Of a DNA stretch of 64,000 bases, positions 7,093 to 63,999 are shown in pieces; the stretch's first letter is position 1; every line of letters starts with the position of its first letter. The notes under the pieces were generated by a model, which was given only the letters and a program-made list of their open reading frames with translations, did not search any database and was not told the origin of the DNA. Location of the stretch: the IMG/VR virus record IMGVR_UViG_3300025121_000013. One strand, 5' to 3'. This DNA comes from a virus (taxonomy: Duplodnaviria > Caudoviricetes). The translations under genes and the position numbers were made by a program.

Positions 7093-8067
7093 TTATTCTC
7101 CTTGAAAAGAGTGAAAGAATTTCCATCTATTATTAAAATCTATATAAACGTCCAAACAATTTTTCTTGCAAATTGGGTCTAAAACTGTCCTATGATTTTC
7201 AAACCAATTTTTTCTTTCTTCTCTCATATTTTCTCCAACCTTCCCAATGGGCTTTCCTTGTTCTCTAAGATAAATAATGCAGGGATAATGTTGTCCATTT
7301 AATACCGCCATATCATCCAAAACTAAAGGACAACGATAATAATCTCCGCTCGTTATCCCTCTAACCCTTCGACCATTTTTAAAATTATTATATCTATATT
7401 TTAAAATAGGATGTTTATTTAAAATAATATCATCAATAAATAAATCTTCAAATAAAGAATTATTTTGTGATGCGGTTATAATCCTTATATCAGAAACATT
7501 CATTGATGAAGAAAATTTAATTATCTCGTTAATTTCATTCATATTATCATTTGTTAAAACCACTCCAATTGTAACATAAGTCTTTTTAGACAATTCTTTG
7601 ATATTCGAAATAACCTTCTCCCAAGACCCTTGAATATTTCCTGAAATTTTATCTCCATTTGTTGAACAACAGGAATCTAATGAAATTGAAAAATCATTGA
7701 TTCCACAGTCTATTAAATGAAGATAAAAGTCAAGATCATTAGAACCATTAGTGGATAAAGCAATTCTCTTAATTCCTTTGGTTTTTGAATATTTTATCAA
7801 TTCAGGAAGATTTACCCATAGGGTGGGTTCTCCGCCAGAAAACCTGACATTTCTCAATCCCTGCCCTGTCCAAAGATCTATAATTTTAATTGCATCTTGA
7901 AGAGAAATATCACCTTGATCTTCTTTTCTTATTCCACGACAATAAGTACAATTGAAATTACATCGATCCGTTAAAATCAATTCACATCTCCATAAAGGAG
8001 TTTTTTCATTTGAGGTTTTTGCTCTTTCATCTTCAAGAGTGTAAAACCCTATATCTTCCAAGATCAT
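7093..8067 (-). CDS. radical SAM enzyme (MoaA-like, C-terminal Cys-rich extension)
   Basis: CNFNCTYC CxxxCxxC, FSGGEPTL, STNG; extra C-terminal cysteines (RCP, YPC, ICKKNC). Confidence 0.88.
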   Translation of the reverse strand: MILEDIGFYTLEDERAKTSNEKTPLWRCELILTDRCNFNCTYCRGIRKEDQGDISLQDAIKIIDLWTGQGLRNVRFSGGEPTLWVNLPELIKYSKTKGIKRIALSTNGSNDLDFYLHLIDCGINDFSISLDSCCSTNGDKISGNIQGSWEKVISNIKELSKKTYVTIGVVLTNDNMNEINEIIKFSSSMNVSDIRIITASQNNSLFEDLFIDDIILNKHPILKYRYNNFKNGRRVRGITSGDYYRCPLVLDDMAVLNGQHYPCIIYLREQGKPIGKVGENMREERKNWFENHRTVLDPICKKNCLDVYIDFNNRWKFFHSFQGE

Positions 8068-9501: not shown

Positions 9502-9517
9502 AACTCTCTCCTTATCA

Positions 9518-9635
9518 TATATTTTTCCTCATTTATATACCATACATTATCAATTTTCATATTAATCTTTTATATACCTTCTGAATTCTGCTTTTAATTC
9601 TTCTCGAGTCATGTGTCTAAAATATATAAGTCTTA
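9518..9635. repeat. 118-bp direct repeat, copy 2
   Basis: matches 8949..9066; encodes the end of 9562..9948 and a 20-aa stub MKIDNVWYINEEKYMIRREL* (9498..9560). Confidence 0.95.
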
Positions 9636-9948
9636 GATTCAAAAATATTAATTCCTTATGGTCTACGCCAATTTTAAAAACTATTTGATTATATTTCATA
9701 TTTATCTTTTCAAATTCTAAATGTTTTAAAACTCCTTCTTTATACTCATCAAATTTTCTTGAATTTCTTCCAAAAGATTTTTTATGTCCTTCAAAATGTC
9801 CAGGATTAGTTTCTTCTAAATAAAGCCAAACAATTTCTTTCCATTCTTCTATAATTTTTTTAATACATTTTTCTTTTTTGTTAACCAATCTTTCAATAGA
9901 TTTTTCAATTGAAATTAATTTTAAAGTATCTTTAAAATTATCACTCAT
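9562..9948 (-). CDS. hypothetical protein
   Basis: 128-aa ORF, ATGA-coupled to the upstream gene. Confidence 0.6.
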   Translation of the reverse strand: MSDNFKDTLKLISIEKSIERLVNKKEKCIKKIIEEWKEIVWLYLEETNPGHFEGHKKSFGRNSRKFDEYKEGVLKHLEFEKINMKYNQIVFKIGVDHKELIFLNLRLIYFRHMTREELKAEFRRYIKD

Positions 9949-10166
9949 CGAATAACAAATCTTTTATAATTAGTAATTTTTTCAATTTTTCTCTTTACTA
10001 ATTGAAAAATTTCTTTTATAAGTTCAAAATCCCGAAACATAATATCCGTAATAATGAGAACTAAAAGAATAGTGATAAAAGAAATAGAAATTCCAAGAAT
10101 TATCTTTAACATTACTTCTAACATCGCATAGCCTAAGGTGATCATCTCGTTCTCCTTTTTCGGCAA
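9945..10166 (-). CDS. single-TM microprotein (family with 10685 and 11257)
   Basis: TM helix then ELIKEIF...YKRFVIR basic tail. Confidence 0.55.
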   Translation of the reverse strand: MPKKENEMITLGYAMLEVMLKIILGISISFITILLVLIITDIMFRDFELIKEIFQLVKRKIEKITNYKRFVIR

Positions 10167-10182
10167 ACTATGAAACGTAGAT

Positions 10183-10626
10183 TTAGAATTTAGTTAACCC
10201 CAAAATATATTCATTTCTCAATTTCATTAATAATTGTCCTAAATGGTTTTGTCCTTTTCCATTGCAAACGCCCCAATATGTATCATGCCACCAATTTCCT
10301 TCAATTAATTCATAACCATTTGTTTCTATTAACTTTTTCTTTAGTTCTAAGTTTTGATTAAATTTCATTCTCAATGCTTTTTCCATAATAAATATTTTTA
10401 CTTTATCCCAGTCGTTTCTCATAACAACTTTTCTTCCTAATTTTTTAGCAATTCCCGGAGATGGTGAATTTCTTATTTTTTCTTGATCATTCAAATCTAA
10501 AGTTTTTTGAGCTTGATAATAATGTTCTACGGTTTTATATTTTATGCCATCATTATCTATAATTTCTGAATCATAAAAATTTGATAAAAATCCATAGTCT
10601 CCTATAAAATTGCTTATCTGCTCCAT
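10183..10626 (-). CDS. NADAR family protein (YbiA/RibX-like)
   Basis: FLSNFY, TVEHYYQAQK, AKKLGR, W...K..IM, DTYWG, GQNHLGQLLMKLR. Confidence 0.9.
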   Translation of the reverse strand: MEQISNFIGDYGFLSNFYDSEIIDNDGIKYKTVEHYYQAQKTLDLNDQEKIRNSPSPGIAKKLGRKVVMRNDWDKVKIFIMEKALRMKFNQNLELKKKLIETNGYELIEGNWWHDTYWGVCNGKGQNHLGQLLMKLRNEYILGLTKF

Positions 10627-13739: not shown

Positions 13740-14981
13740 CTAAAATCTATTTAAGATATCATTTCTTGTTGGCCCATAACTACAAATAAATCTATCAAAC
13801 CCTAAAGTTACTTTTAGAAAATTAGGAAATAATTCTTTTCTTAATTTTAAAATATCATATAAATCTTTGAAAGGTATATCTTCATCTACCTGATCCATAC
13901 AAGTAATTACAATATTTTTTCGTATTATAAATTTATTTGCATATATTAAATCAAAATTTATTGTGTCATTCATTAAGGGAATATCTAAATATCCGAATCT
14001 CAAACTACCTTGAAAATTATTAGGGATATTAGTTTTATCAATAATTTTAGAATATATTTTTTCTGGTTGTTCTGTCGGAAATGGGCCAGCCCCATGTCTC
14101 GTCATATATGTTCTTGTAATATAATAAATATCTAACTTAGAAATTTCAAAATCATTACAAAGTTCAATTACATTTTTTAATCCGGTATTTGATCTGGTGA
14201 CATGAGGAAACCATTTATGATTTTGATCTAAGAGAAGCCCTTGAGCCCCTTCAAAAATAATATTCTTATTTTTAACAAAATTTAAATCAGAAGGAATTAT
14301 AATTTTTTTAATAAATTCTTGACAATCCAAAATAAAATTTTCAATTATATTTTCATTATATAATCTTTCCTTATATTTATCATCAATATTTTCTATTCCT
14401 AAAATTCGTAATCTATTAAAAAAATATTCTTCTTTTATTAATCTTAATTTATCTTTAAGTTCTTTTGGATTTTTTAATAGATCAGAAACTTCGATTAAAT
14501 ATCTGTTATTATTTAAAGATCTTTCAATTGTTTCATTTATTCCTAGACCACAACTACCATGTTTTTTATCTCCTCGTTTTTCCTCAATTATATGATTTAT
14601 CAATACATCAAATGGGGTTGTGACAATACATTCTTTATCAACAAAAACAATAGGGTTATAATTTTTAAGTAATTCATATTCATCTAAAAATACATAAGGA
14701 TTTACAATAAAATATCTACTTAAAAAAGTTGGAACATTATTAAAAGTTCCTGCACCAAAATGTCCAAAAACATGTCTTTTTCCATTTTCTAATTGTACAG
14801 AATGTGCTGCCTGAGAACCTCCATTAAATCGTATGACTATCCCACTTTCTTTAAATTTATTAGAAAGATAATCTGTAAAAAGTCCTTTGCCTTCATCACC
14901 AAAATTAGAGCCGATAACAACCTTAGCGTCTTTCATGATGGTTGGGGGACATATCCCTTTCGAGATATGCCCCCATTCCAA
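13740..14981 (-). CDS. purA: adenylosuccinate synthetase-like protein (divergent PurA family)
   Basis: GSNFGDEGKG, RFNGGSQAAH, GSCGLGI, IFEGAQGLLLD, VTRSNTG, TRHGAGPFPTE; start likely at MKDAKV. Confidence 0.85.
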   Translation of the reverse strand: MEWGHISKGICPPTIMKDAKVVIGSNFGDEGKGLFTDYLSNKFKESGIVIRFNGGSQAAHSVQLENGKRHVFGHFGAGTFNNVPTFLSRYFIVNPYVFLDEYELLKNYNPIVFVDKECIVTTPFDVLINHIIEEKRGDKKHGSCGLGINETIERSLNNNRYLIEVSDLLKNPKELKDKLRLIKEEYFFNRLRILGIENIDDKYKERLYNENIIENFILDCQEFIKKIIIPSDLNFVKNKNIIFEGAQGLLLDQNHKWFPHVTRSNTGLKNVIELCNDFEISKLDIYYITRTYMTRHGAGPFPTEQPEKIYSKIIDKTNIPNNFQGSLRFGYLDIPLMNDTINFDLIYANKFIIRKNIVITCMDQVDEDIPFKDLYDILKLRKELFPNFLKVTLGFDRFICSYGPTRNDILNRF

Positions 14982-30680: not shown

Positions 30681-31088
30681 CTAACATAGAGCCCATGTTA
30701 TAAGAATTTCATCATCTTCAAATAATGTTGTCCAACTGGAAACTGGTTTCCATTGATCTATTTTTTTAAAAGATTTTAAAATAACAATTTTAAATCCATA
30801 AGTTATTAAAAATAATCTAGTATATCTTATTAAATCCTTATAAATTTTAAAATCAAATTCAATTTCAAAAGAACATTTTGAACAAATTCCATCAAAAAAT
30901 TCAATATGACTATGTTCTTTATCTACATTAACATTAATGTTATTTTTACAAAAACAACACTTTATAATACAATCTTCAATAACATTTAATTCAATAAAAG
31001 TTTTTATATCAAAATCATTTAAAAAATTTATACAAGGTTCGGAACAAAATTTTTGTAAAATGCAATTATTGCAAGGAAACAACATCAA
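30681..31088 (-). CDS. Cys-rich hypothetical protein
   Basis: PCNNC....CSEPC, CCFC, CSKC. Confidence 0.55.
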   Translation of the reverse strand: MMLFPCNNCILQKFCSEPCINFLNDFDIKTFIELNVIEDCIIKCCFCKNNINVNVDKEHSHIEFFDGICSKCSFEIEFDFKIYKDLIRYTRLFLITYGFKIVILKSFKKIDQWKPVSSWTTLFEDDEILITWALC

Positions 31089-31930
31089 ACCTGAAGAAAA
31101 TATTTTTCATCAAATCCTCCTTGAATTCCTTTCCAAGAACTTGCAACTGCCTCTGATGTATGGATTGATTCCTCATGAGAACATTTTATGATCCAATCCT
31201 CTATCCCATCTATCGAATCGATTTTTTGAGAAATAACTCGAATTGCATCTTCAACAAAAATGGGATTTTCTGCTGCGATTCTAGCGATCTCTTGCTCATC
31301 TATTCTTTTGATTATAGGGTATGGCTGAGTTCGTATCGAGTTTTCGACAGTAAATATTAGATCCTCTAACCATATATAATTATTCTCTTTTATTTTTGCT
31401 ATGATTGATGAGAAAGATCTCTGTGCATGAGGAAAACCTTCTAAGCCATTATTTTTTAAATCTTTACATAATTCAGCAGAACATGGACAATATGAAGAAT
31501 ATTGAACTGTTACGCCCTGATAAAATGAAAATTTATCATCTAATAGATGCCCTTCAAACATACTTTTATAATATAAAGGAAATTCATTGTTTGAAATTGG
31601 AGATTTTTTAATAATAGGAAGTTTAAACTTAAATGTTAACATACTATTTTTTGTTTCAAGATTTTTTGCAATATCTTTTAAAATTTCAAGAATTAAAAAA
31701 TGTTTTAACGGTTTTCCTAAAAATGGTTTTAGGGTTAATAAAAGTCTTGACATGGAAATGCCTTTAATATCTTCTTTTAAATTTGTTTTTAAAGAAACTG
31801 AAGCTAAGACATCCGTATAACCACCTGATTTTAATTGAAGAATAAACGGAAGCTCAATATTTTCAACCCCAACCTGATTAATATATCTTTTAATCTCTGG
31901 CTCTGTTTTTTGAATGTCCGGCAGTGTCAT
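31085..31930 (-). CDS. folE2: GTP cyclohydrolase IB (FolE2)
   Basis: LPDIQ, QVGV, KGISMSR, SYCPCSAEL, HAQRS, KR.DE, FVEDAIR, EESIH. Confidence 0.92.
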   Translation of the reverse strand: MTLPDIQKTEPEIKRYINQVGVENIELPFILQLKSGGYTDVLASVSLKTNLKEDIKGISMSRLLLTLKPFLGKPLKHFLILEILKDIAKNLETKNSMLTFKFKLPIIKKSPISNNEFPLYYKSMFEGHLLDDKFSFYQGVTVQYSSYCPCSAELCKDLKNNGLEGFPHAQRSFSSIIAKIKENNYIWLEDLIFTVENSIRTQPYPIIKRIDEQEIARIAAENPIFVEDAIRVISQKIDSIDGIEDWIIKCSHEESIHTSEAVASSWKGIQGGFDEKYFLQV

Positions 31931-35092: not shown

Positions 35093-37819
35093 TTAAACTT
35101 TTTCCCCTTTTAATATTCGGTCCATAATTCCAGTATATAAACCTTTATATACCATTCCATTTAATATGCTCTTTTTTGGATTAGAAAAAGCTAAAGCTAA
35201 AAGCCAACTTTCATAACTGGGAACCGATTGGACACTTTTCATTTCTAAAGATTTTTTATCACGATCTTTGGTTAATCTCCATTTTTTCATTCCATGCCAC
35301 ATTAACTGAGAAATCACACATTCAAAATGAACATGATGTATTTTTCCAGAAGAGGAATATACTTTAAATAAATTATTTAAAGAATTCATAAAATTATTAT
35401 CTTTAAATCTATGTAATAAATCAGAAGCGGTTTCTAAATCCCCAATAATATCCATCTGTTTCATCTCATCAATTTTTTCTTCAGATTTTTCATTAATTAT
35501 AGCAGACCCAGAAGTATGGAAAGTTCTTAAAACTAATTGAGTTCCTCTTTCACCAAGACACTGAGCCGCAACTACGCCAATAAATTTACTATTGATAATT
35601 TTGTATAAATCTCCATAACAAGTTTTACAAATATTTTCAGATTCACAATAAATAGGACTTCGTAGTTTTAAAGTTTTTCCAACTAAACTTTTAAAATTTA
35701 ACATTGTAATTTTTTTCAATTCATTATTCTCTATATAATTTCTGCCTATTAAAGATTTACTTTTATCTGCATTTTCAATAAAAAGTTCTATACAATCTTT
35801 AGTTCCACAATCTTCTAAATTTAAATCAAGTTGAAGATTACAACAGGTAAAAATCAACTTTCTTGAAAGATAGCCTGAGATTCCAGTATTTAATGCAACG
35901 TCTAATAAACCTTTTCGACATCCATATGTGGATATAAAAAATTCTCTTTTGGTTAACCCATTCATTAAACTATTTTTAATTGGTTCAGGTAAAATTTGTC
36001 CTTCAAAATTTGAGATAAACCCTCTTGATAAAACAATTTGTCTAACTTGGTCCCAAGTTCCTCTGGCTCCAGATTCAACCATATAAGAATATTTAAATAT
36101 TTTCTTTAAAGTTTCTATAGTTTCATTTGAAGATATATCTTCGATTTGTTTTCTTATATTTTCTCCTGAAAATATTTTATCTACATATTCCTTAGAATCT
36201 TTTGATGTACAATCAATTAAAGACATAGTGGTTCCGAAAATTGTTGAATATTTAAATCCCAATAATTTGATCTTATCTAAAACTATGGCTAATATTTCTT
36301 TAGAATAATTTTGTGAAATATCACTTAAGATTTTTAATAATTCATTTTTGCCTACAGAGTAATTTATTATAGGATAGTCTTCTGGAAAACACTCATTGAA
36401 TAATTTTCTTCCTTCTGTGATTTTAATATTTTTAAAAATAGTTTCTTTTGTTAAATCAGGAAATTTATCATTTGTTAACATATAAATTCCCAAAATTATA
36501 TCTTGATTTGGCATAGTCGCTAATTGTCCATTTGATGGACTGTTTAAATTATTTGTTATCAATAACTTATCAAGAACTTCATCTTTTGCCTCTTGAGATA
36601 TTGGTAAATATACCGCCATCTGATCCCCATCAAAATCAGCATTAAATGGCTCACATGCTAAAGGGTGAATTTTTATAACATTATCTGAGGATATTTTAAT
36701 TTTGAAACCAAGCATTCCTAATCTATGAAGCGTGGGTTGCCTATTTAAAATACAAACTTCACCCTTTACAATTTCTTCAGCTTCTTTATATAAATCCAAA
36801 CTTTTAAGATCAATGCATCTATCAACAAAATCTATTGCCTCGTTGAGAATTTTAAAACTTTCATTATTCACTAATTTTTGTGCAATTTGAATTTTAAATA
36901 ATTCTAAAATCATAACATAGGGTAAAACACATTCGTCAATATTAATAGTTGGAGATGGGACTATTACGGCTCTCCCTGAAAAATCAATTCTTTTTCCTAA
37001 AATATTTCCTCTTATCAATCCTTCTTTTTTAGAAAGTTTTTCCAATATAAAAACATAAAGTTGATTTACAGTTTTTTGAATTTCTTTAAAATACATATAA
37101 TATATCTTTTTATTTTTTTGAACTTCGACCAAAGTGTTTTCAATGATCTTTTTATTTGTTAAAAGTTGAACATAAAATCTATTTATTGGATCTGCGACAG
37201 GAACATTTTTTACCGTAGTTTTTGATGGGGGTCTTAAATCTGGAGGTAAAACAATTACTTCGTTTATTAAAATATTATTTAAATTTTCTTTTATTATATT
37301 CCAATAACTTAATTCTGGATTTTCTTCATCCTTTAAAATCTCTTTTGTAATTTGTGTAATAAATTCTTTTATTGCCTCAGTTTTTTCAAAAAATATTTTT
37401 TCTTTAGGGATGCTTTCAATATCTGTGGTTATAACAAATTCTCCATTATCATCTTTATATAAAATACTTTTATCATTTTTCATTAACATAGAAATCATTT
37501 CTTTAACTTTCTTTCCGCCAACAAAACTTAATAGTTCAAAAAACATTGGATTTACAATTGGAAAAGGCAAAACAATTTTTCCAAATCTTCTTCTTCTTAC
37601 ATTACTATTAACTATGTCAACATTACAAATATTACATTTTCCTCCGGATTTTGAAACGCCCCTATAAATTTTACATTGACATGTATAATTTCTTATTGGT
37701 CCAAAAAGTTGTTCTGAAAAAAGGCCATTTGGATGAAATTTTTTCTTATCAATAATCTCAAATGTAGTTACCTCTGGAAGATTTTCACAAAACTTAGAAA
37801 TATCTAAGAGTTTGGGCAT
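35093..37819 (-). CDS. rpoC: multisubunit RNA polymerase beta' subunit (unsplit)
   Basis: GLFSEQLFGP, CQC..CNIC zinc site, VLPPDLRP, GKRIDFSGRAV, LNRQPTLH, NADFDGDQM active site, second Cys site, AQCLGERGTQLVLRTFH trigger loop. Confidence 0.95.
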   Translation of the reverse strand: MPKLLDISKFCENLPEVTTFEIIDKKKFHPNGLFSEQLFGPIRNYTCQCKIYRGVSKSGGKCNICNVDIVNSNVRRRRFGKIVLPFPIVNPMFFELLSFVGGKKVKEMISMLMKNDKSILYKDDNGEFVITTDIESIPKEKIFFEKTEAIKEFITQITKEILKDEENPELSYWNIIKENLNNILINEVIVLPPDLRPPSKTTVKNVPVADPINRFYVQLLTNKKIIENTLVEVQKNKKIYYMYFKEIQKTVNQLYVFILEKLSKKEGLIRGNILGKRIDFSGRAVIVPSPTINIDECVLPYVMILELFKIQIAQKLVNNESFKILNEAIDFVDRCIDLKSLDLYKEAEEIVKGEVCILNRQPTLHRLGMLGFKIKISSDNVIKIHPLACEPFNADFDGDQMAVYLPISQEAKDEVLDKLLITNNLNSPSNGQLATMPNQDIILGIYMLTNDKFPDLTKETIFKNIKITEGRKLFNECFPEDYPIINYSVGKNELLKILSDISQNYSKEILAIVLDKIKLLGFKYSTIFGTTMSLIDCTSKDSKEYVDKIFSGENIRKQIEDISSNETIETLKKIFKYSYMVESGARGTWDQVRQIVLSRGFISNFEGQILPEPIKNSLMNGLTKREFFISTYGCRKGLLDVALNTGISGYLSRKLIFTCCNLQLDLNLEDCGTKDCIELFIENADKSKSLIGRNYIENNELKKITMLNFKSLVGKTLKLRSPIYCESENICKTCYGDLYKIINSKFIGVVAAQCLGERGTQLVLRTFHTSGSAIINEKSEEKIDEMKQMDIIGDLETASDLLHRFKDNNFMNSLNNLFKVYSSSGKIHHVHFECVISQLMWHGMKKWRLTKDRDKKSLEMKSVQSVPSYESWLLALAFSNPKKSILNGMVYKGLYTGIMDRILKGEKV

Positions 37820-47308: not shown

Positions 47309-47614
47309 CTATCTTATGCTTATTTTAAATTTTTTATTCCCGTTTTCAACATATTCAGTCCTGTCAAAAGGTATAGATCTCCATTCTTTTTTCTCGAGAT
47401 CAAAAACATGTAAAAGATTTGACTTGCTTATCAAACTTAAAATTTTTGTAATATCAATTCCTTTTGGTCTCTTTTCTTTTGGTATCTTATCAAAATCTAA
47501 AGTGCATTTCATTATTCTTGCAGTTCCGTCTTTTTTAATAAAAGAAACTTTTGATTCATCAACTCTCAAAATACGAATAAAATCAATAGCCTTGTCAATG
47601 ATTTCCATTTTCAT
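47309..47614 (-). CDS. SH3-fold WYL_2/DUF2693-like phage protein
   Basis: VSFIKKDGTARIMKCTL...VFDLEKKEWRS. Confidence 0.75.
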   Translation of the reverse strand: MKMEIIDKAIDFIRILRVDESKVSFIKKDGTARIMKCTLDFDKIPKEKRPKGIDITKILSLISKSNLLHVFDLEKKEWRSIPFDRTEYVENGNKKFKISIR

Positions 47615-48632
47615 TCTCCCTATTTTTTGTATGGATGACTAAATCCCTATATTCATCTTTTTGAGAAAGTTTGCTAAATATCGGGCATGTCCAATTACAA
47701 CCTTGACAAAATCTCTTTTTATCCTCTTTTAATAATTCTAAAAAACCTTTATTAAAGGTTAAATCCGAATTAAAAATATTTTGAATTTTAAAAGGTAACC
47801 CAACGTATCCCATAATTCTTAAACACAATCTCAATGAACCGTCCGAATCAATTGTAATATTATGAAGATCTTCTTCTAATTTACAATCGTAGTTTGAGGG
47901 TAATATTTCAAATAATCTATCTAAAAATTCTTTTCCCATATGAATATTAAAGTCTTCTTGTTTTATTTCATCAAAAATTTTCTTTGTGTTTTCATCAGGC
48001 AATACTAATAAATTTTTATCTGTTACATTTGAAAAATCATAAAAATCATTCTTTGCAATATCTATAGATGTCACGCTGCTAGAAATTTTTCTGTTGGTTA
48101 AATCTTTTAATAAAGGCTTTAAATAATTTATCGTTTCTCTATCTATCGTAACCTCGGCTACAACGTCTTTTATTTTCTCCGTTAATTTTGTTAAACGTTC
48201 AAGACCTTTTTTACTTTTTTCATATCGATCTTTATCATAGTTTGTAGAAAATAAAACTGGATCAACGGATGAAGTAAAACCTTTAACTTCAACATTATCA
48301 ATCAATTTAATTATTCGTTCTTGAACTTGATCACTATTATTTGAGATAATTGTATAATGAATATTTTTCTTATTGCAAAAATCAATAATCTCAATTAAGT
48401 CTTTTCTTAAAAAAGGCTCTCCACCATAAAAAATATGAAAACAATTTGGATTATGTTCTTTTAAAATATCTAATGAATCAAGAACATATTGGGTGGACAT
48501 TTCATAATTTATAAAATATTTAAATGATGGATAATTTCTATTTTTATATTTTGGATCAGATATTCGACAATATGAACAATTTAAATTACATCGCCTCGTT
48601 AAAAGCCAATTTACAATTTGAATTCTATCCAT
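47595..48632 (-). CDS. radical SAM enzyme with twitch/SPASM-like tail
   Basis: LTRRCNLNCSYC, YGGEPF, ISN; C-terminal DC..., IDSDG.LRLC, CQGCNWTC. Confidence 0.87.
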   Translation of the reverse strand: MDRIQIVNWLLTRRCNLNCSYCRISDPKYKNRNYPSFKYFINYEMSTQYVLDSLDILKEHNPNCFHIFYGGEPFLRKDLIEIIDFCNKKNIHYTIISNNSDQVQERIIKLIDNVEVKGFTSSVDPVLFSTNYDKDRYEKSKKGLERLTKLTEKIKDVVAEVTIDRETINYLKPLLKDLTNRKISSSVTSIDIAKNDFYDFSNVTDKNLLVLPDENTKKIFDEIKQEDFNIHMGKEFLDRLFEILPSNYDCKLEEDLHNITIDSDGSLRLCLRIMGYVGLPFKIQNIFNSDLTFNKGFLELLKEDKKRFCQGCNWTCPIFSKLSQKDEYRDLVIHTKNRENENGNH

Positions 48633-57566: not shown

Positions 57567-58823
57567 TCATTCTTCGAAAAATTCCGGAAGCCTAATTATC
57601 GGGCCTGTCCCTTCAATTTGAGATTCACTGCCTCTGTGATTTAAAATCCATAAAATCGAATGTGGCAAATGACTATCTCCACGAGAATGTTTATCACACT
57701 CTCCATCGGTAAAGACTAAATTAACATCAGAATTAATTTCTTTTAATCTTGCAAGACCTGGTTGTAAAGTAGTTCCATGCCGCCCATGAAATTTAGGTTG
57801 AATGTCTGATATTTTTTTAACTGAATATTCTTTTTGAACTTGTGTATCATTTTCTAAAACGGTGATTGAGACATCTGGATCCTTTTCTAAAATATTTTTA
57901 ATCGATGATAATCCTTCAGCCATGTCGCGCAAACCCATTGATCCAGAGGTATCAATTAAAACCCCTATGGAAAAAGTCCTTTTCCTTTTATAGCCAGGAT
58001 AAGGAAGAATCCTTGTCATTTTCTCCTTGACAATATAAATTTTCTTTTTATTTAAAATCATTCTTCGTTGCATTATAGCTCTTCTACTTTTCTTAACAAA
58101 CCTTCGAATTAATTCATAATATGGCAATGACGCATTAAAAAATTGATTTAAAAGTTCTTCTAAGTTTCCCCCATCAGATCCTCTATTACTTATTCGTTTC
58201 CATTCATCTGCTGCTTTTGACATAACATTTTGTAAATTTCTTAATTCTTTTTCGATATCTTTAGGAATAAGATGCTCATCAAATTTGAATTCCTGGGGGA
58301 TGGATTCATCTTTCATTTTCTTTTCTAATTCATGATAATACCATTCAAAAGCCATATTTCTTGGTAAATTAAACATTTCAGGTCTTGCGACAGGAAAAAA
58401 TTTTCCCATGCATGTAACACCGCCTTTAATATCTCCAACGTCATTAGCTGCCATATCAACCGCAATAGCAAAAATTTCATAATTAAATTTCTCTTTTTTT
58501 ATCTCCTTCAATTCTCTTAATCTAAATAAGTGTTTTAAAATTAAATGATATCCCTCATGAACCAAAACTTTCTCAATATCTTCCTTTGACATTGTAGAAA
58601 AATATTCAGAATTTACGCAAAGGTTTATCTCTTTATTTTCAAGCGCAACAGCACATATTTGTCCCGGAAAATGATATTTTTTATTGACCCTTGAAAATAG
58701 AAAGCCCCAGAAACTGTTTCTGACAATTAAATCACAAATTACACCCTCAACTTTTTCCTTTATCTGTTTCTGAATCTGATCCATTAAGGGTCCTTTCATG
58801 AACTTCGACTCTGAATTTTTCAA
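57567..58823 (-). CDS. DUF2201-like metallopeptidase plus vWA protein
   Basis: LVHEGYHLI (HExxH), A.D.A.N, IDTSGSM, GTTL, VFTDG. Confidence 0.85.
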   Translation of the reverse strand: MKNSESKFMKGPLMDQIQKQIKEKVEGVICDLIVRNSFWGFLFSRVNKKYHFPGQICAVALENKEINLCVNSEYFSTMSKEDIEKVLVHEGYHLILKHLFRLRELKEIKKEKFNYEIFAIAVDMAANDVGDIKGGVTCMGKFFPVARPEMFNLPRNMAFEWYYHELEKKMKDESIPQEFKFDEHLIPKDIEKELRNLQNVMSKAADEWKRISNRGSDGGNLEELLNQFFNASLPYYELIRRFVKKSRRAIMQRRMILNKKKIYIVKEKMTRILPYPGYKRKRTFSIGVLIDTSGSMGLRDMAEGLSSIKNILEKDPDVSITVLENDTQVQKEYSVKKISDIQPKFHGRHGTTLQPGLARLKEINSDVNLVFTDGECDKHSRGDSHLPHSILWILNHRGSESQIEGTGPIIRLPEFFEE

Positions 58824-59943
58824 ACCTCGTTAGATCTCTCATCAATAAAGCTATATATTTAAAAGACTCTTCAGCCTTTATTTTATTAAATTCAGACAAA
58901 AATATTTGAAAAATATCCCTTGGAATCATACAAAAGAATTCAGAGATGCCTTCCTTTTGAGCATCAGTTAACCCAGGGGTATTATTTTTCAAAGTCAAAA
59001 ATAATCCAACTGTCAATTCTGAGGCACTAAAATTATCAGTTTCACAAATTACCTTCACCGCGTCCTTTATTGTTTCAAAATTAAAAATAATTTTATCAGG
59101 GCTAATGGTTTCATTTTTCTGTACATATTCAATGAATTGTGATGACATCCCAGTATTTATCAATCCAGAAATAAGTAAATCAATGCTTTCTATCTCCGAA
59201 GCATTCGTGCTTCTAATTTCCATCAATTTTAAAATTTCTGATACCTTTTCCCAAGATGATGGATTTGCAAATGCCTGCCCATTATGATGAGATTGATTAT
59301 CATAAAGTCTGTCTGTAAAATTCATAATAAAGTTTGTAACAAATGGATGAAATTTAGAATTTATTGCATAATTGATCCATTCTGAAGTACTGCATTCACA
59401 TCCAATATGCAACGACCGTCTCATTCCAGCGGAGTCGTCAATCGTATTCATTGAATAATTATCGTCATCTGGGTTATCAATAGAGACCACAAACCATCCT
59501 CTTGGAAAAGATTTTGTATGAATTCGGCATTCATTCTGAGCTTGCCAAAGAAGCATTTGAAGATTCGTGTCGCCCCTTGAAAATTCGTCTAAAACCAAAA
59601 TTCCAAATTCTTCCTTTGAAGGAACAAAATCTGAATAAAGCATCTTAAATTGATCGGATTCCCCAATCGGATAAGGAATCAAAAAATCATCTCTTGTAAT
59701 AACCGGGCACTTTAATTCAATAAATCCAAACTCAACTTTCAATTCTTCTTGAAGTTCCAATGCAATTTGCCTTAAAATATCAGTTTTTCCAATTCCCGCA
59801 TTTCCAATCAAACGAATAGAAATTTTAATTGGTGATTCTCCATTAAGTATTTTTTTAGTCATTTGGGTAAAATATTTTTTCAAAATTATTTTAGCTTTAC
59901 CTATACTTGTTTTTTGTATATTCAGCTTCTTGATATAGTCCAT
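58747..59943 (-). CDS. MoxR-like AAA+ ATPase
   Basis: GNAGIGKT, LVLDEFSRG, DNP, RR, NPSSW; adjacent to the DUF2201/vWA partner. Confidence 0.85.
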   Translation of the reverse strand: MDYIKKLNIQKTSIGKAKIILKKYFTQMTKKILNGESPIKISIRLIGNAGIGKTDILRQIALELQEELKVEFGFIELKCPVITRDDFLIPYPIGESDQFKMLYSDFVPSKEEFGILVLDEFSRGDTNLQMLLWQAQNECRIHTKSFPRGWFVVSIDNPDDDNYSMNTIDDSAGMRRSLHIGCECSTSEWINYAINSKFHPFVTNFIMNFTDRLYDNQSHHNGQAFANPSSWEKVSEILKLMEIRSTNASEIESIDLLISGLINTGMSSQFIEYVQKNETISPDKIIFNFETIKDAVKVICETDNFSASELTVGLFLTLKNNTPGLTDAQKEGISEFFCMIPRDIFQIFLSEFNKIKAEESFKYIALLMRDLTRFEKFRVEVHERTLNGSDSETDKGKS

Positions 59944-62526: not shown

Positions 62527-63999
62527 TCACTTTGAGAGCATTAAAGAAATAAAATAACTATTCAAAATATCTTTTGTTGGACTCGTTTTTGATTCTTTCC
62601 ATTTTGTTTGACCGGTTTGAATTATATCTGAAACCATTTCATTTTTCATAGCGTGATCATCAGAAAGAGGCCCAAATAATTCTGAAAGAATAGTGGGGCA
62701 ATTGTAGCTCAGTAAAGCCCACGTATCACCCTCTCCAACTCGTTGTCCACCTTCCTTTTTCTTTCCAGCTAAAGGTTGTAATGTTTTTCCAGCGACGGGG
62801 CCTGTACTTCTTACGTGAACTTTCATTTCTCCAATATGTTCTAACTTATAAATATAACTATATCCAAAGGGAACTGGCTTAATTGTTTTTGTCCCATATT
62901 CAGGTAATGTTAAATAATAAGAATCTTGTAAGCCAAGAGATTTCAAGGCTTTTGTTATCTGTTCTTTATTTGGTGATTTAAATGGTGGAACTATGATTGG
63001 AACAAATGACTCTTTTTTAATTTGCTCAATTAATAAATTATAATTTTGATCTGAAAGATTTTTTATTCTATTTATAAAATCAACAGTATATTTTTTATTT
63101 TTTGTATTATCTAATAAACTCAATGTCTTATCAAAAATATTTAAAACATTTATTCTTTTGGGATTTTCGATAATCACCTGAGATAGTTTTTTAGAAATTA
63201 ATCCACAATACATTTCGTACATTTGACCAATATTCATTCGAGAAATGACACCAATAGGATTCATAATAATTTCAACTCTTTCTCCCCAAGGTGTCCTTGG
63301 CATATTTTCTCTTTTTTCAACTAACGAAACTATTCCTTTATTACCAAATCTTCCACATAATTTATCTCCGATATTTATATTCAATTCTTGTTCAATTTTA
63401 AATCTTATAATTAATCCTTTAAAAGGATTTCCTTTTATTGTGAAATTTTGTTTATCAGGTTTTCCATATCTCTGATTAGTTCTTTGAATTAATTCATTCA
63501 ATTTTTGAAACTTTGAACTTGGAAGATTTGACAAAACCTCAATATCAACTATTCTTCCACCCGGACTCTTTTTAATATATTGTCCTGAAGAAATTAAACT
63601 TGAATCGTCGTCATCAATATTATCAAACCCAATCAATTGTTCTATCTCTCCAACAGTTTTTCTTATTATTGGATCACCTTTTTTAATATAAGATCCAATT
63701 TCTGCTAAATATAATAATCTATCATTTTCAGACATAAATATATCTTCAATGATTCCATGGAGTGAAACCATTTTTTGACTTTCAACTAAATCTTCACTTA
63801 TCACAAGACCATCTTCAAAATTATATCCCTTATATGACATATAGCAAGTTGCCAATGTTCTGCCTAACGCAATGGACCCTTTTGAAATGCAACTTCCTTC
63901 AGATATAATTTCATCTTTTTTTACATTATCTCCACTCTTCACAGTATGATTAAAAACGCTTAATGTATTTTTTCCAGAGCCTGATCTTAAATGAACAGG
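62527..63999 (-). CDS. rpoB: RNA polymerase beta-like subunit, copy 2 (5' part outside window)
   Basis: frame open to window edge (PVHLRSGSGKN...); GYNFEDGLVIS, GDKLCGRFGNKG, NPIGVISRMN, GGQRVGEGD. Confidence 0.9.
   Translation of the reverse strand, partial: PVHLRSGSGKNTLSVFNHTVKSGDNVKKDEIISEGSCISKGSIALGRTLATCYMSYKGYNFEDGLVISEDLVESQKMVSLHGIIEDIFMSENDRLLYLAEIGSYIKKGDPIIRKTVGEIEQLIGFDNIDDDDSSLISSGQYIKKSPGGRIVDIEVLSNLPSSKFQKLNELIQRTNQRYGKPDKQNFTIKGNPFKGLIIRFKIEQELNINIGDKLCGRFGNKGIVSLVEKRENMPRTPWGERVEIIMNPIGVISRMNIGQMYEMYCGLISKKLSQVIIENPKRINVLNIFDKTLSLLDNTKNKKYTVDFINRIKNLSDQNYNLLIEQIKKESFVPIIVPPFKSPNKEQITKALKSLGLQDSYYLTLPEYGTKTIKPVPFGYSYIYKLEHIGEMKVHVRSTGPVAGKTLQPLAGKKKEGGQRVGEGDTWALLSYNCPTILSELFGPLSDDHAMKNEMVSDIIQTGQTKWKESKTSPTKDILNSYFISLMLSK

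Follow-up and report, generated by a model that had tools for sequence, protein, structure and literature searches.

A conserved jumbo-phage gene cassette predicted to encode a ubiquitin-like protein-conjugation pathway

Gene layout of the cassette

The 64,000-nucleotide stretch of viral DNA examined here (IMG/VR record IMGVR_UViG_3300025121_000013; Duplodnaviria, Caudoviricetes), referred to throughout as the window, carries a cassette of eight co-oriented genes that likely encodes a ubiquitin-like protein-conjugation pathway belonging to the phage itself. In the order of transcription, the genes specify two giant proteins with an E2-type (conjugating enzyme) domain, B and A; a JAB peptidase; a ThiF-type E1 (activating enzyme); a ubiquitin-like protein (Ubl), which we call the tag; an accessory open reading frame (ORF); a degenerate ThiF-like protein, E1b; and a small stand-alone E2-like protein. 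An initial annotation, made from the sequence alone, had described eight mostly overlapping ORFs of common orientation with rpoC and rpoB directly after them, and all of these genes were found where it had placed them, on the minus strand (Table 1). Junctions within the cassette overlap by 1, 1, 4, 4, 4, and 16 nt, the small E2 gene sharing 4 nt with the E1b gene and 16 nt with rpoC. E1b and the small E2 show translational coupling and are conserved together. The only non-overlapping junctions are those on both sides of the Ubl gene, with gaps of 85 nt, which is the leader of the tag gene, and 56 nt.

Table 1. Features of the cassette and the RNA polymerase genes that follow it, in window coordinates.
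Feature	Length	Coordinates	Strand	Domain or basis of assignment
Giant E2 B	785 aa	44585..46942	-	Prok-E2_D, then ~550 aa of unassigned fold
Giant E2 A	814 aa	42141..44585	-	N-terminal Prok-E2_D
JAB/JAMM metallopeptidase	371 aa	41026..42141	-	Prok-JAB, PRTRC_A
ThiF-type E1	230 aa	40337..41029	-	ThiF
Ubl tag	145 aa	39814..40251	-	Rho_N + ThiS-like beta-grasp
Intrinsic terminator		39772..39803	-	Terminator scan and RNA fold
Variable accessory ORF, hydrophobic N-terminus	212 aa	39119..39757	-	No family match
E1b, degenerate ThiF-like	295 aa	38235..39122	-	thiF_fam2, Atlas, Pfam in relatives
Small stand-alone E2-like protein, HPN-x8-C	144 aa	37804..38238	-	Conserved motif and structure model
rpoC-like, unsplit	908 aa	35093..37819	-	Pfam RNA_pol_Rpb1
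rpoB-like, unsplit	1002 aa	32077..35085	-	Pfam RNA_pol_Rpb2

The contig is phage DNA, since the window holds a large terminase, RNA and DNA ligases, topoisomerase II subunits, SbcCD, helicases, and two sets of multisubunit RNA polymerase genes. Its composition is 27.5% GC, and nearly all of its genes lie on the minus strand. The DNA comes from groundwater and soil metagenomes, in which contigs bearing the same tag protein reach 274 kb.

The tag protein

The tag consists of a Rho-N, or helix-extended-helix (HeH), domain (residues 1-48), a linker, a ThiS-like beta-grasp domain (about residues 60-137), and the tail KPAGRKG, followed by an extra F145. The N-terminal domain matches Pfam Rho_N at 1.8e-9, and in an AlphaFold2 (AF2) model of the tag (pLDDT 80) it superimposes on the N-terminal domain of Rho with a Z of 9.0 and a root-mean-square deviation (rmsd) of 1.8 over 48 residues. 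The modelled fold of residues 1-48 is thus of the Rho N-terminal/SAP/LEM helix-extended-helix type. For the C-terminal part, profile matches in the tag family of 42 members are to ThiS (34 of 42), TGS (29), and TrkA_C (1), and a ThiS cluster of the Atlas matches its model with a TM-score of 0.60, normalised by the hit, over 67 residues (rmsd 3.0).

The C-terminus of the family (alignment A1, 42 homologs) reads ...L-E-F-L-K-P-A-G-x-K-G, and the last Gly, which is invariant, ends the protein in most members. Among 69 distinct tag sequences from related loci, 41 terminate at this Gly, 12 add a Cys, and a few add one to five residues. The tag of the phage under study (the source phage) has Phe145 beyond the conserved Gly144. 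The initial annotation had the Ubl ending in KPAGRKGF; this holds for the sequence in hand, while the alignment places the conserved terminus at Gly144 and makes Phe145 an extension. One related locus (L065, positions 9515-10474) encodes a head-to-tail di-Ubl in a single ORF with two full HeH plus beta-grasp units, the ...KPAGRKG of the first unit running directly into the second. This arrangement is, judged from its sequence, a polyubiquitin-like precursor. Together, the di-Ubl and the extended tags imply the need for an endopeptidase that cuts after Gly, a job expected of the neighbouring JAB. In its precursor forms and its invariant Gly terminus, the predicted tag resembles a ubiquitin-type modifier.

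The tag gene stands apart from its surroundings in composition. Its GC content is 0.62 and its GC content at third codon positions (GC3) is 0.81, as against a GC3 of 0.13-0.20 for every neighbour, which makes it the extreme outlier among the 87 ORFs of the window. The GC island lies within positions 39710-40339. Codon choice is correspondingly uniform: ATC is used in 10 of 10 cases, AAC in 8 of 8, AAG in 6 of 6, CTG or CTC in 9 of 9, and Arg is encoded solely by CGN. Related phages show a weaker form of this tendency: in 84 of 85 loci, the GC3 of the tag gene is above that of the genes beside it, with a difference of up to +0.38, and high values turn up in scattered parts of the rpoC tree. Directly 3′ of the gene lies an intrinsic terminator with a 12-bp GC stem, a UUCG loop, and a U run (-30.9 kcal/mol, z -3.6); among related loci, 94% have a strong hairpin behind the tag gene, compared with 11% behind other genes. 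The source phage gene has a strong Shine-Dalgarno site, and a consensus AAGGAG ribosome-binding site is common in those relatives whose upstream sequence was inspected. The strong Shine-Dalgarno site, the dedicated terminator, and the biased codons suggest that the tag is produced in far greater amounts than the enzymes. We infer that the GC island reflects selection on a modifier needed in stoichiometric amounts, either for very high or early expression or for stability of its mRNA.

Other origins of the island were considered. A chimeric assembly is ruled out, as 24 contigs, drawn from several studies of groundwater and soil, carry the identical protein in the same surroundings. Recent import of the gene from a sampled GC-rich donor is not supported, because the nearest homologs of the tag (56% and 52% identity) reside in AT-rich phage contexts with a GC3 of 0.21-0.27, and the GC-rich homologs of Chloroflexota are only 31-37% identical. 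As for a structured RNA within the island, Rfam gave none, and the fold z-score is only -2.0 with the terminator included.

The E1 and its modelled complex with the tag

The E1 matches ThiF at 3.3e-20, has MoeB and ThiF as its best NCBIfam matches, and retains every adenylation residue of ThiF and MoeB. Invariant among its homologs are GxGGxG (residues 7-12), D37, R48-Q49, K57, D101-N-H, R106, and SGGN (123-126). Of its conserved cysteines, C168 is invariant and C191 is present in at least 90% of sequences. The ThiF/E1 with intact adenylation motifs and a candidate catalytic Cys, as originally called, is therefore well founded.

Modelling of an E1-Ubl complex had been put forward as a check of the initial annotation. 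The E1 was modelled with tag residues 55-144 in three runs, alongside three controls, and the pair passed them with an ipSAE of 0.71 versus 0.00 for the best control; the mark set for this score is attained by 58 of 80 solved complexes and by 2 of 110 mismatched pairs. At least 72% of the contacts are common to the three runs, and the partner pLDDT is at least 77. Tail residues 137-144 of the modelled tag contact G7-G12, V100-H103 (including D101), R106, S123-N126, and Y151-I155 of the E1. The model supports E1-tag binding, with the Gly tail sitting in what would be the adenylation site.

The E2-like proteins

The E2-like proteins fall into two classes. The first is the giant class, in which 42 of 46 family members match Prok-E2_D; the alignment of these 46 (A4) has nine invariant positions, including an Asn and a Cys eight residues apart (alignment N115 and C123). 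Giant E2 B matches Prok-E2_D over residues 162-220 and carries both of these residues. Giant E2 A, whose domain taken alone scores 27.6 bits against the Prok-E2_D cut-off of 25, has N159 and C167. The two giants are collinear over their whole length and 23% identical over 660 aa (E 1e-18). Most related loci match B better than A, and B is probably the ortholog of the single giant E2 of the relatives. A departs from the family consensus at many conserved sites and is a divergent tandem paralog present only in the source phage; in none of the other loci among the 86 compared are there two giant E2s. Family and fold searches with the C-terminal ~550 aa of the giants gave no match, a sequence search of the PDB with the giant-E2 profile returned nothing useful, and scanning viral contigs with giant E2 A as the only query gave no match.

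The second class is the small stand-alone protein. In 49 sequences averaging 23% identity, P30, H72, N74, and C83 are invariant and P73 nearly so, which gives an HPN and a catalytic-type Cys at the spacing canonical for UBC proteins. The HPN...C motif also holds when the family is widened to at least 352 cluster representatives. In every structure search with the AF2 model (pLDDT 88), E2 folds alone came at the top: E2/UBC folds make up all of the first 19 matches in an unbiased comparison with 48,161 PDB chains, and the top two Atlas clusters are UQ_con (TM 0.48-0.50). The family profile aligns its motif to the HPN...C of solved E2s, with E values of 0.24 and 0.58. Given this record, the small protein is quite probably a divergent UBC-like E2.

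Thus, the E2 domains assigned to the giants have held up, as has the HPN-x8-C motif of the stand-alone candidate E2. The count of "three E2 folds" needs amending: there are three E2-like proteins, and they represent two E2 classes, one of which is duplicated in the source phage alone. Homology between the two classes was considered; hhalign aligns the PLxN...C of the giants with the HPN...C of the small protein, but not significantly.

The JAB peptidase, E1b, and the variable ORF

The JAB protein matches Prok-JAB at 2.9e-5 and PRTRC_A at 2.5e-9, the latter well below the family cut-off. Its JAMM residues, E84 and H129-x-H131-x7-S139-x-x-D142, are invariant in 32 sequences, in agreement with its first assignment as a JAB peptidase. 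We predict that it trims the tag precursor and strips the tag from targets. A PDB sequence search with the JAB profile yielded nothing useful.

E1b comprises a degenerate ThiF-like Rossmann domain and a C-terminal domain of about 90 aa. A match to NCBIfam thiF_fam2 (3.7e-7), ThiF clusters in Atlas feature and structure searches, and precomputed Pfam ThiF matches of its relatives all uphold its description as a second, degenerate E1. The family keeps GxGxxG, D35, K56, and DCRD and lacks the Arg-Gln of active E1s, and the source phage protein has additionally lost R101 and R107. At the extreme C-terminus (domain at 38238-38459; alignment A7), the family has a nearly invariant ...IELIPETGAA, which is ESGAA at the end of the source phage protein. 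Such an end might serve for docking, act as a pseudo-substrate, or belong to a fused second tag; with respect to the last, profile comparison of the C-terminal domain with the tag family gave no similarity, and no PDB sequence matched the domain.

The ORF between the tag and E1b genes had been listed as a membrane-anchored part of the system. The ORF is real and its N-terminus is hydrophobic in the source phage, but the anchor is not conserved. Family searches matched nothing; homologs occur in 27 loci, the ORF at this place varies in size and is sometimes absent, and a hydrophobic segment is found in only 2 of 85 loci. It is accordingly excluded as a conserved component; the remaining seven ORFs can all be assigned.

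Conservation across the jumbo-phage clade

A search for the same synteny in other phages had also been suggested, and the order does recur, in 86 loci. Eighty loci were retrieved from IMG/VR with the tag alignment, and further loci came from NCBI, ENA, JGI, and Logan. In the 86 loci, the order is SbcC, radical SAM, WYL_2, giant E2, JAB, E1, tag, the variable ORF where present, E1b, small E2, rpoC, rpoB. The RNA polymerase genes hold the same position after the cassette in all 86, and the carriers are uncultured jumbo phages. The rpoC of the window is about 55-60%, and at most 62%, identical to those of related loci. Since rpoC is so diverged, this run of genes is an old collinear core block of the clade, and the persistence of one order across 86 such loci is far above chance. 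The adjacency to the RNA polymerase genes in particular is weak evidence of a functional link, because the whole block from SbcC to rpoB is collinear throughout.

In GenBank phages, no DNA match to the cassette was found, and the only protein matches were two weak ones to its E1. Some contigs of the clade are filed inside metagenome-assembled genomes, namely L091 (DAOVGR010000079.1) and L090, under the labels Thermoplasmatales archaeon and "uncultured bacterium". These placements are probably binning errors rather than clues to the host.

Relation to known systems

Operons of plasmids and integrative and conjugative elements that combine Prok-E2_D, Prok-JAB, ThiF, and Ubl genes were predicted by Iyer, Burroughs, and Aravind in 2006 (PMC1779556). 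Four sequence features of class 6 of these authors are found in the phage cassette: an E1 of ThiF type whose adenylation motifs are intact, an E2/UBC-superfamily protein with a conserved catalytic Cys, here of the Prok-E2_D type, a JAB with the JAMM signature E...HxHx7SxxD, and a Ubl of beta-grasp type in which the C-terminal Gly is conserved. A scan of 185,579 species genomes returned two likely mis-binned phage contigs and four Chloroflexota loci. In one of the latter (L093:3444-12200, on a 533-kb contig), a ThiS-like Ubl ending in ...EFLKPAGVKG plus LVA, a 259-aa Prok-E2_D protein, a Prok-JAB, and a 231-aa ThiF adjoin a relaxase, a HerA/TrwB-type ATPase, and an AAA ATPase, the first two of which precede the four genes. 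By its sequence relationships, this element is a mobile-element cousin of the phage core cassette. Because a Chloroflexota mobile element has the same parts, the phage core can be placed in the operon class of Iyer et al.

The nearest named relative, a distant one, is the PRTRC system (ParB-related, ThiF-related cassette; NCBIfam TIGR03734-03742). The two share the same four types of part, the same internal E2-JAB-E1 order, and residence on mobile DNA, and the phage E1 matches PRTRC_ThiF (5e-12), the JAB matches PRTRC_A (2.5e-9), and the giant E2 matches PRTRC_B weakly. None of these matches reaches its family cut-off (PRTRC_A 37 vs 101.8 bits, PRTRC_B 14.8 vs 131, PRTRC_ThiF 45.6 vs 144.8), and neither a ParB-related protein nor PRTRC proteins C to F are among the eight ORFs or their upstream neighbours. 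The phage set further differs in having its E2 fused to ~550 extra residues, an HeH domain on its tag, a second ThiF-like protein, a second, UBC-like E2, and a lytic-type jumbo phage as carrier. We found no tested function for PRTRC in a literature search. On these comparisons, the phage core is best assigned to the broad mobile-element E2-JAB-E1-Ubl class rather than to PRTRC proper.

The Bil system (BilABCD) shares with the phage cassette the logic of Ubl, E2, JAB, and E1, the lack of an encoded E3, and an E2 that is thought to pick the target. BilD combines an inactive and an active adenylation domain (PMC11601596), and E1b and E1 may mirror these two domains as separate proteins. Sequence similarity is marginal, the BilD model of PADLOC being matched by the E1 only (E 0.0017). 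Moreover, the phage E1 is a minimal protein of 230 aa with a single adenylation domain and no separate Cys domain, and it is encoded by a virus and not by a host. No other Bil model of PADLOC was matched, and the single-chain E1 of Bil, with inactive adenylation, active adenylation, and Cys domains, has no counterpart here. Likewise for Cap2/Cap3 of the cyclic oligonucleotide-based antiphage signalling system (CBASS), E1-E2 models match at 2.6e-4 or worse, and the block has neither the fusion nor a CD-NTase.

With the sulfur-carrier pairs MoaD-MoeB and ThiS-ThiF, the phage set has in common a ThiS-like beta-grasp with a Gly tail and a small ThiF-type enzyme, with the tail placed in the nucleotide site in the model. 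The differences are that the phage tag ends in a single Gly after Lys/Arg, not in Gly-Gly, that it is fused to HeH, and that its set has E2-like and JAB partners. Neither a MoaE or ThiG partner nor a sulfurtransferase was found in or beside the cassette.

Among cultured phages, the Bacillus jumbo phage vB_BauM_KLEB27-3 (OM634661.1:167647-169897) has adjacent genes, gp194 and gp195, for a PRTRC_A-domain (JAB) protein and a ThiF. The JAMM motif is intact, this motif and the adenylation motifs are similar to those of the source phage, and the ThiF is 31% identical to the source E1. The gene pair is not beside RNA polymerase genes, the space separating its two members shows no evident tag gene, and large unannotated ORFs lie upstream. 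This phage is a possible laboratory model. A literature search for phage-encoded E1-E2-JAB-Ubl systems, with most subscription journals outside its coverage, found no study.

Proposed pathway and alternative explanations

We propose that the cassette encodes a ubiquitin-like protein-conjugation pathway, and we consider this likely. The earlier claim that the phage possesses its own E1-E2-JAB-Ubl system stands at the level of sequence-based prediction, all of the named catalytic signatures being conserved across the clade. In the proposed sequence of events, the JAB would trim the tag precursor, removing Phe145 so as to expose Gly144; in the relatives, it would remove the Cys or short peptides or cut the di-Ubl. 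The 230-aa E1 would then bind the beta-grasp, thread the KPAGRKG tail into its ATP site, and adenylate Gly144, after which the tag would probably move to the invariant Cys168 of the E1. A thioester transfer would follow to the invariant Cys of an E2, which may be the small HPN...C protein, the Prok-E2_D domain of the giant, or both. Target lysines would receive the tag, the ~550-aa region of the giant E2 picking the target in the way of an E2/E3 hybrid, and the JAB would also reverse the mark. E1b is probably a non-catalytic partner of the E1 and/or a dock for the small E2. Such a role as inactive partner or E2 dock is suggested by BilD and eukaryotic E1s, in which inactive and active adenylation domains are paired. 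Given the HeH domain on the tag, conjugation would bring a nucleic-acid-binding or protein-docking module to the target.

Several observations weigh against this proposal. Neither an E3, nor a target, nor an RNA-seq run containing the locus was found. As to the tag, its assignment as a beta-grasp Ubl in the initial annotation agrees with the ThiS profile matches and the Atlas ThiS cluster; the fold searches of PDB and Swiss-Prot with its C-terminal domain do not bear it out, since they ranked TrkA-C and uL23 first (Z about 5) and gave no ubiquitin, MoaD, or ThiS, so that the Atlas fold search was the only one to yield a ThiS cluster. The small E2 resembles E2 folds weakly (Z 3.4-4.5 over about 91-101 aligned residues, rmsd 3.6-5.5), it falls outside every Pfam family, and UQ_con is matched by 1 of 49 and 1 of 46 members. 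The two E2 classes have no significant profile-profile similarity to each other. Finally, the E1-tag model may reflect memory of the MoeB-MoaD and ThiF-ThiS sulfur-carrier structures, and in that respect it supports the pairing of the two proteins and not conjugation as such.

It is tempting to extend the proposal to a layered cascade of eukaryotic style owned by the virus, in which a split E1 would pass the tag to the small UBC-like E2 and from there to the giant E2/E3 hybrid, and in which bulk HeH-Ubl, once attached, would reprogram phage or host nucleic-acid machinery during infection. The split E1 would consist of the active 230-aa subunit and an inactive ThiF-like one that docks the E2 through its C-terminal domain; the HeH-Ubl, supplied by a specially recoded, GC-rich gene with a terminator of its own, would bind DNA or RNA, and the adjacent RNA polymerase or the replisome would be examples of targets. 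We offer this full scheme, with all of its parts taken together, as a tentative and rather doubtful elaboration.

Three other explanations are rated lower than a conjugation pathway. The main grounds are that the cassette has, as fixed members, two E2-like families whose catalytic residues are invariant, and that it lacks a partner for sulfur transfer. Phages commonly counter host immunity with relatives of its enzymes, and the cassette might accordingly serve in counter-defence, its enzymes acting mainly on host Bil, Bub, or CBASS Cap2/Cap3, with the JAB, for example, stripping host tags from phage proteins or the phage tag and E2s serving as decoys; it would then run no tagging programme for the phage itself. 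E1 and E1b do show weak similarity to BilD and CBASS E1-E2 models of PADLOC, and host Bil systems are known to tag phage tail proteins (10.1101/2023.09.04.556158). Yet the similarity to defence families is marginal (E 1e-3 to 1e-4), and a decoy would need less than a complete, strictly conserved complement of E1, E2, tag, and peptidase in which the tag appears to be very highly expressed. The cassette is, moreover, core and collinear in a deep clade, and not a variable accessory island. We regard this explanation as unlikely.

The second explanation makes the tag a sulfur carrier. After adenylation it would be converted to a thiocarboxylate and would donate sulfur to a nucleobase, RNA, or a cofactor, as in ThiS/ThiF, MoaD/MoeB, and TtuB/TtuC; HeH would keep the carrier bound to nucleic acid, with carrier maturation as the sole task of the JAB. 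The ThiS/MoaD-like profile of the tag and the MoeB and ThiF matches of the E1 are in line with this, an E1-tag docking model would look alike in either case, and sulfur systems that pair JAB with Ubl are known (PMC1779556). The genome also has MoaA-like radical SAM, FolE2, and PurA/PurZ-like nucleotide-modification genes. What speaks against a sulfur carrier is that two E2-like families with an invariant Asn and Cys accompany the cassette in nearly every locus, whereas no rhodanese, cysteine desulfurase, MoaE, ThiG, or PP-loop thiolase is found among the eight ORFs and their immediate neighbours, and the E1 itself is without a rhodanese domain. Poly-tag and extended precursors are also more typical of modifier proteins. 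A sulfur-carrier function is, in our judgement, distinctly improbable.

The last explanation, a virion or assembly chaperone in the manner of lambda gpI/gpK, with beta-grasp and JAB acting non-covalently or through a single cleavage and the E1- and E2-like proteins being structural or inactive, can draw on known Ubl-plus-JAB pairs of phage tail assembly (PMC1779556) and on HeH domains like that of the tag in solved phage baseplate proteins (Z about 5.3-5.4), but it is very improbable indeed given that, throughout the clade, neither the adenylation residues of the E1 nor the catalytic Asn and Cys of the two E2 classes vary, and that the cassette sits in a replication and transcription block, not among structural genes.

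Implications

Prokaryotic Ubl conjugation has recently become an active topic as a host anti-phage defence, with CBASS Cap2/Cap3, Bil, and Bub as examples. To our knowledge, ubiquitin-style kits have so far been studied only in cells, mostly in that defensive role. A complete version on the side of the virus would show that phages, too, use covalent tagging, whether for their own infection programme or against the host's version. Systems of this kind are already known: they were predicted in 2006, and Bil and CBASS are demonstrated cases. The novelty lies in the carrier, a lytic-type jumbo-phage clade, and in the presence of two E1-like proteins, two E2 classes, an E2 fusion, and a tag with an HeH domain. 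A minimal E1 beside a degenerate one, two unrelated E2 classes, one of them fused to a large unassigned region, and a tag with a domain of DNA-binding type are features not described for bacterial systems, and they could inform the origin of eukaryotic heterodimeric E1s and of E2/E3 hybrids. Were the layered cascade true, it would constitute the first ubiquitin-like signalling pathway to serve a bacteriophage's own ends and, independently of eukaryotes, a further instance of their inactive/active E1 pairing. The parts look soluble and are of small size, so that activation of the tag by the E1, trimming by the JAB, and charging of the E2s are directly reconstitutable. The extreme codon recoding of one gene in an AT-rich phage is a separate puzzle of phage expression tuning.

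Other genes of the window

Immediately upstream of the cassette (47309-48632) are genes for a SPASM/twitch-type radical SAM protein and a WYL_2 protein, a position that they keep in almost every related locus. A second RNA polymerase beta-like gene (62527-63999) extends past the end of the window, from which it follows that the phage probably has two multisubunit RNA polymerase sets. An adenylosuccinate-synthase-like gene lies at 13740-14981; PurA is its best match, PurZ a weak one, and its PHROG name is aminoadenine synthesis. Along with a MoaA-like radical SAM gene (7093-8067) and a GTP cyclohydrolase FolE2 gene (31085-31930), it gives a hint of modified DNA bases. At 57567-59943, a gene for a DUF2201 protein (VWA-like plus metallopeptidase) adjoins one for an AAA_5 (MoxR-like) ATPase.

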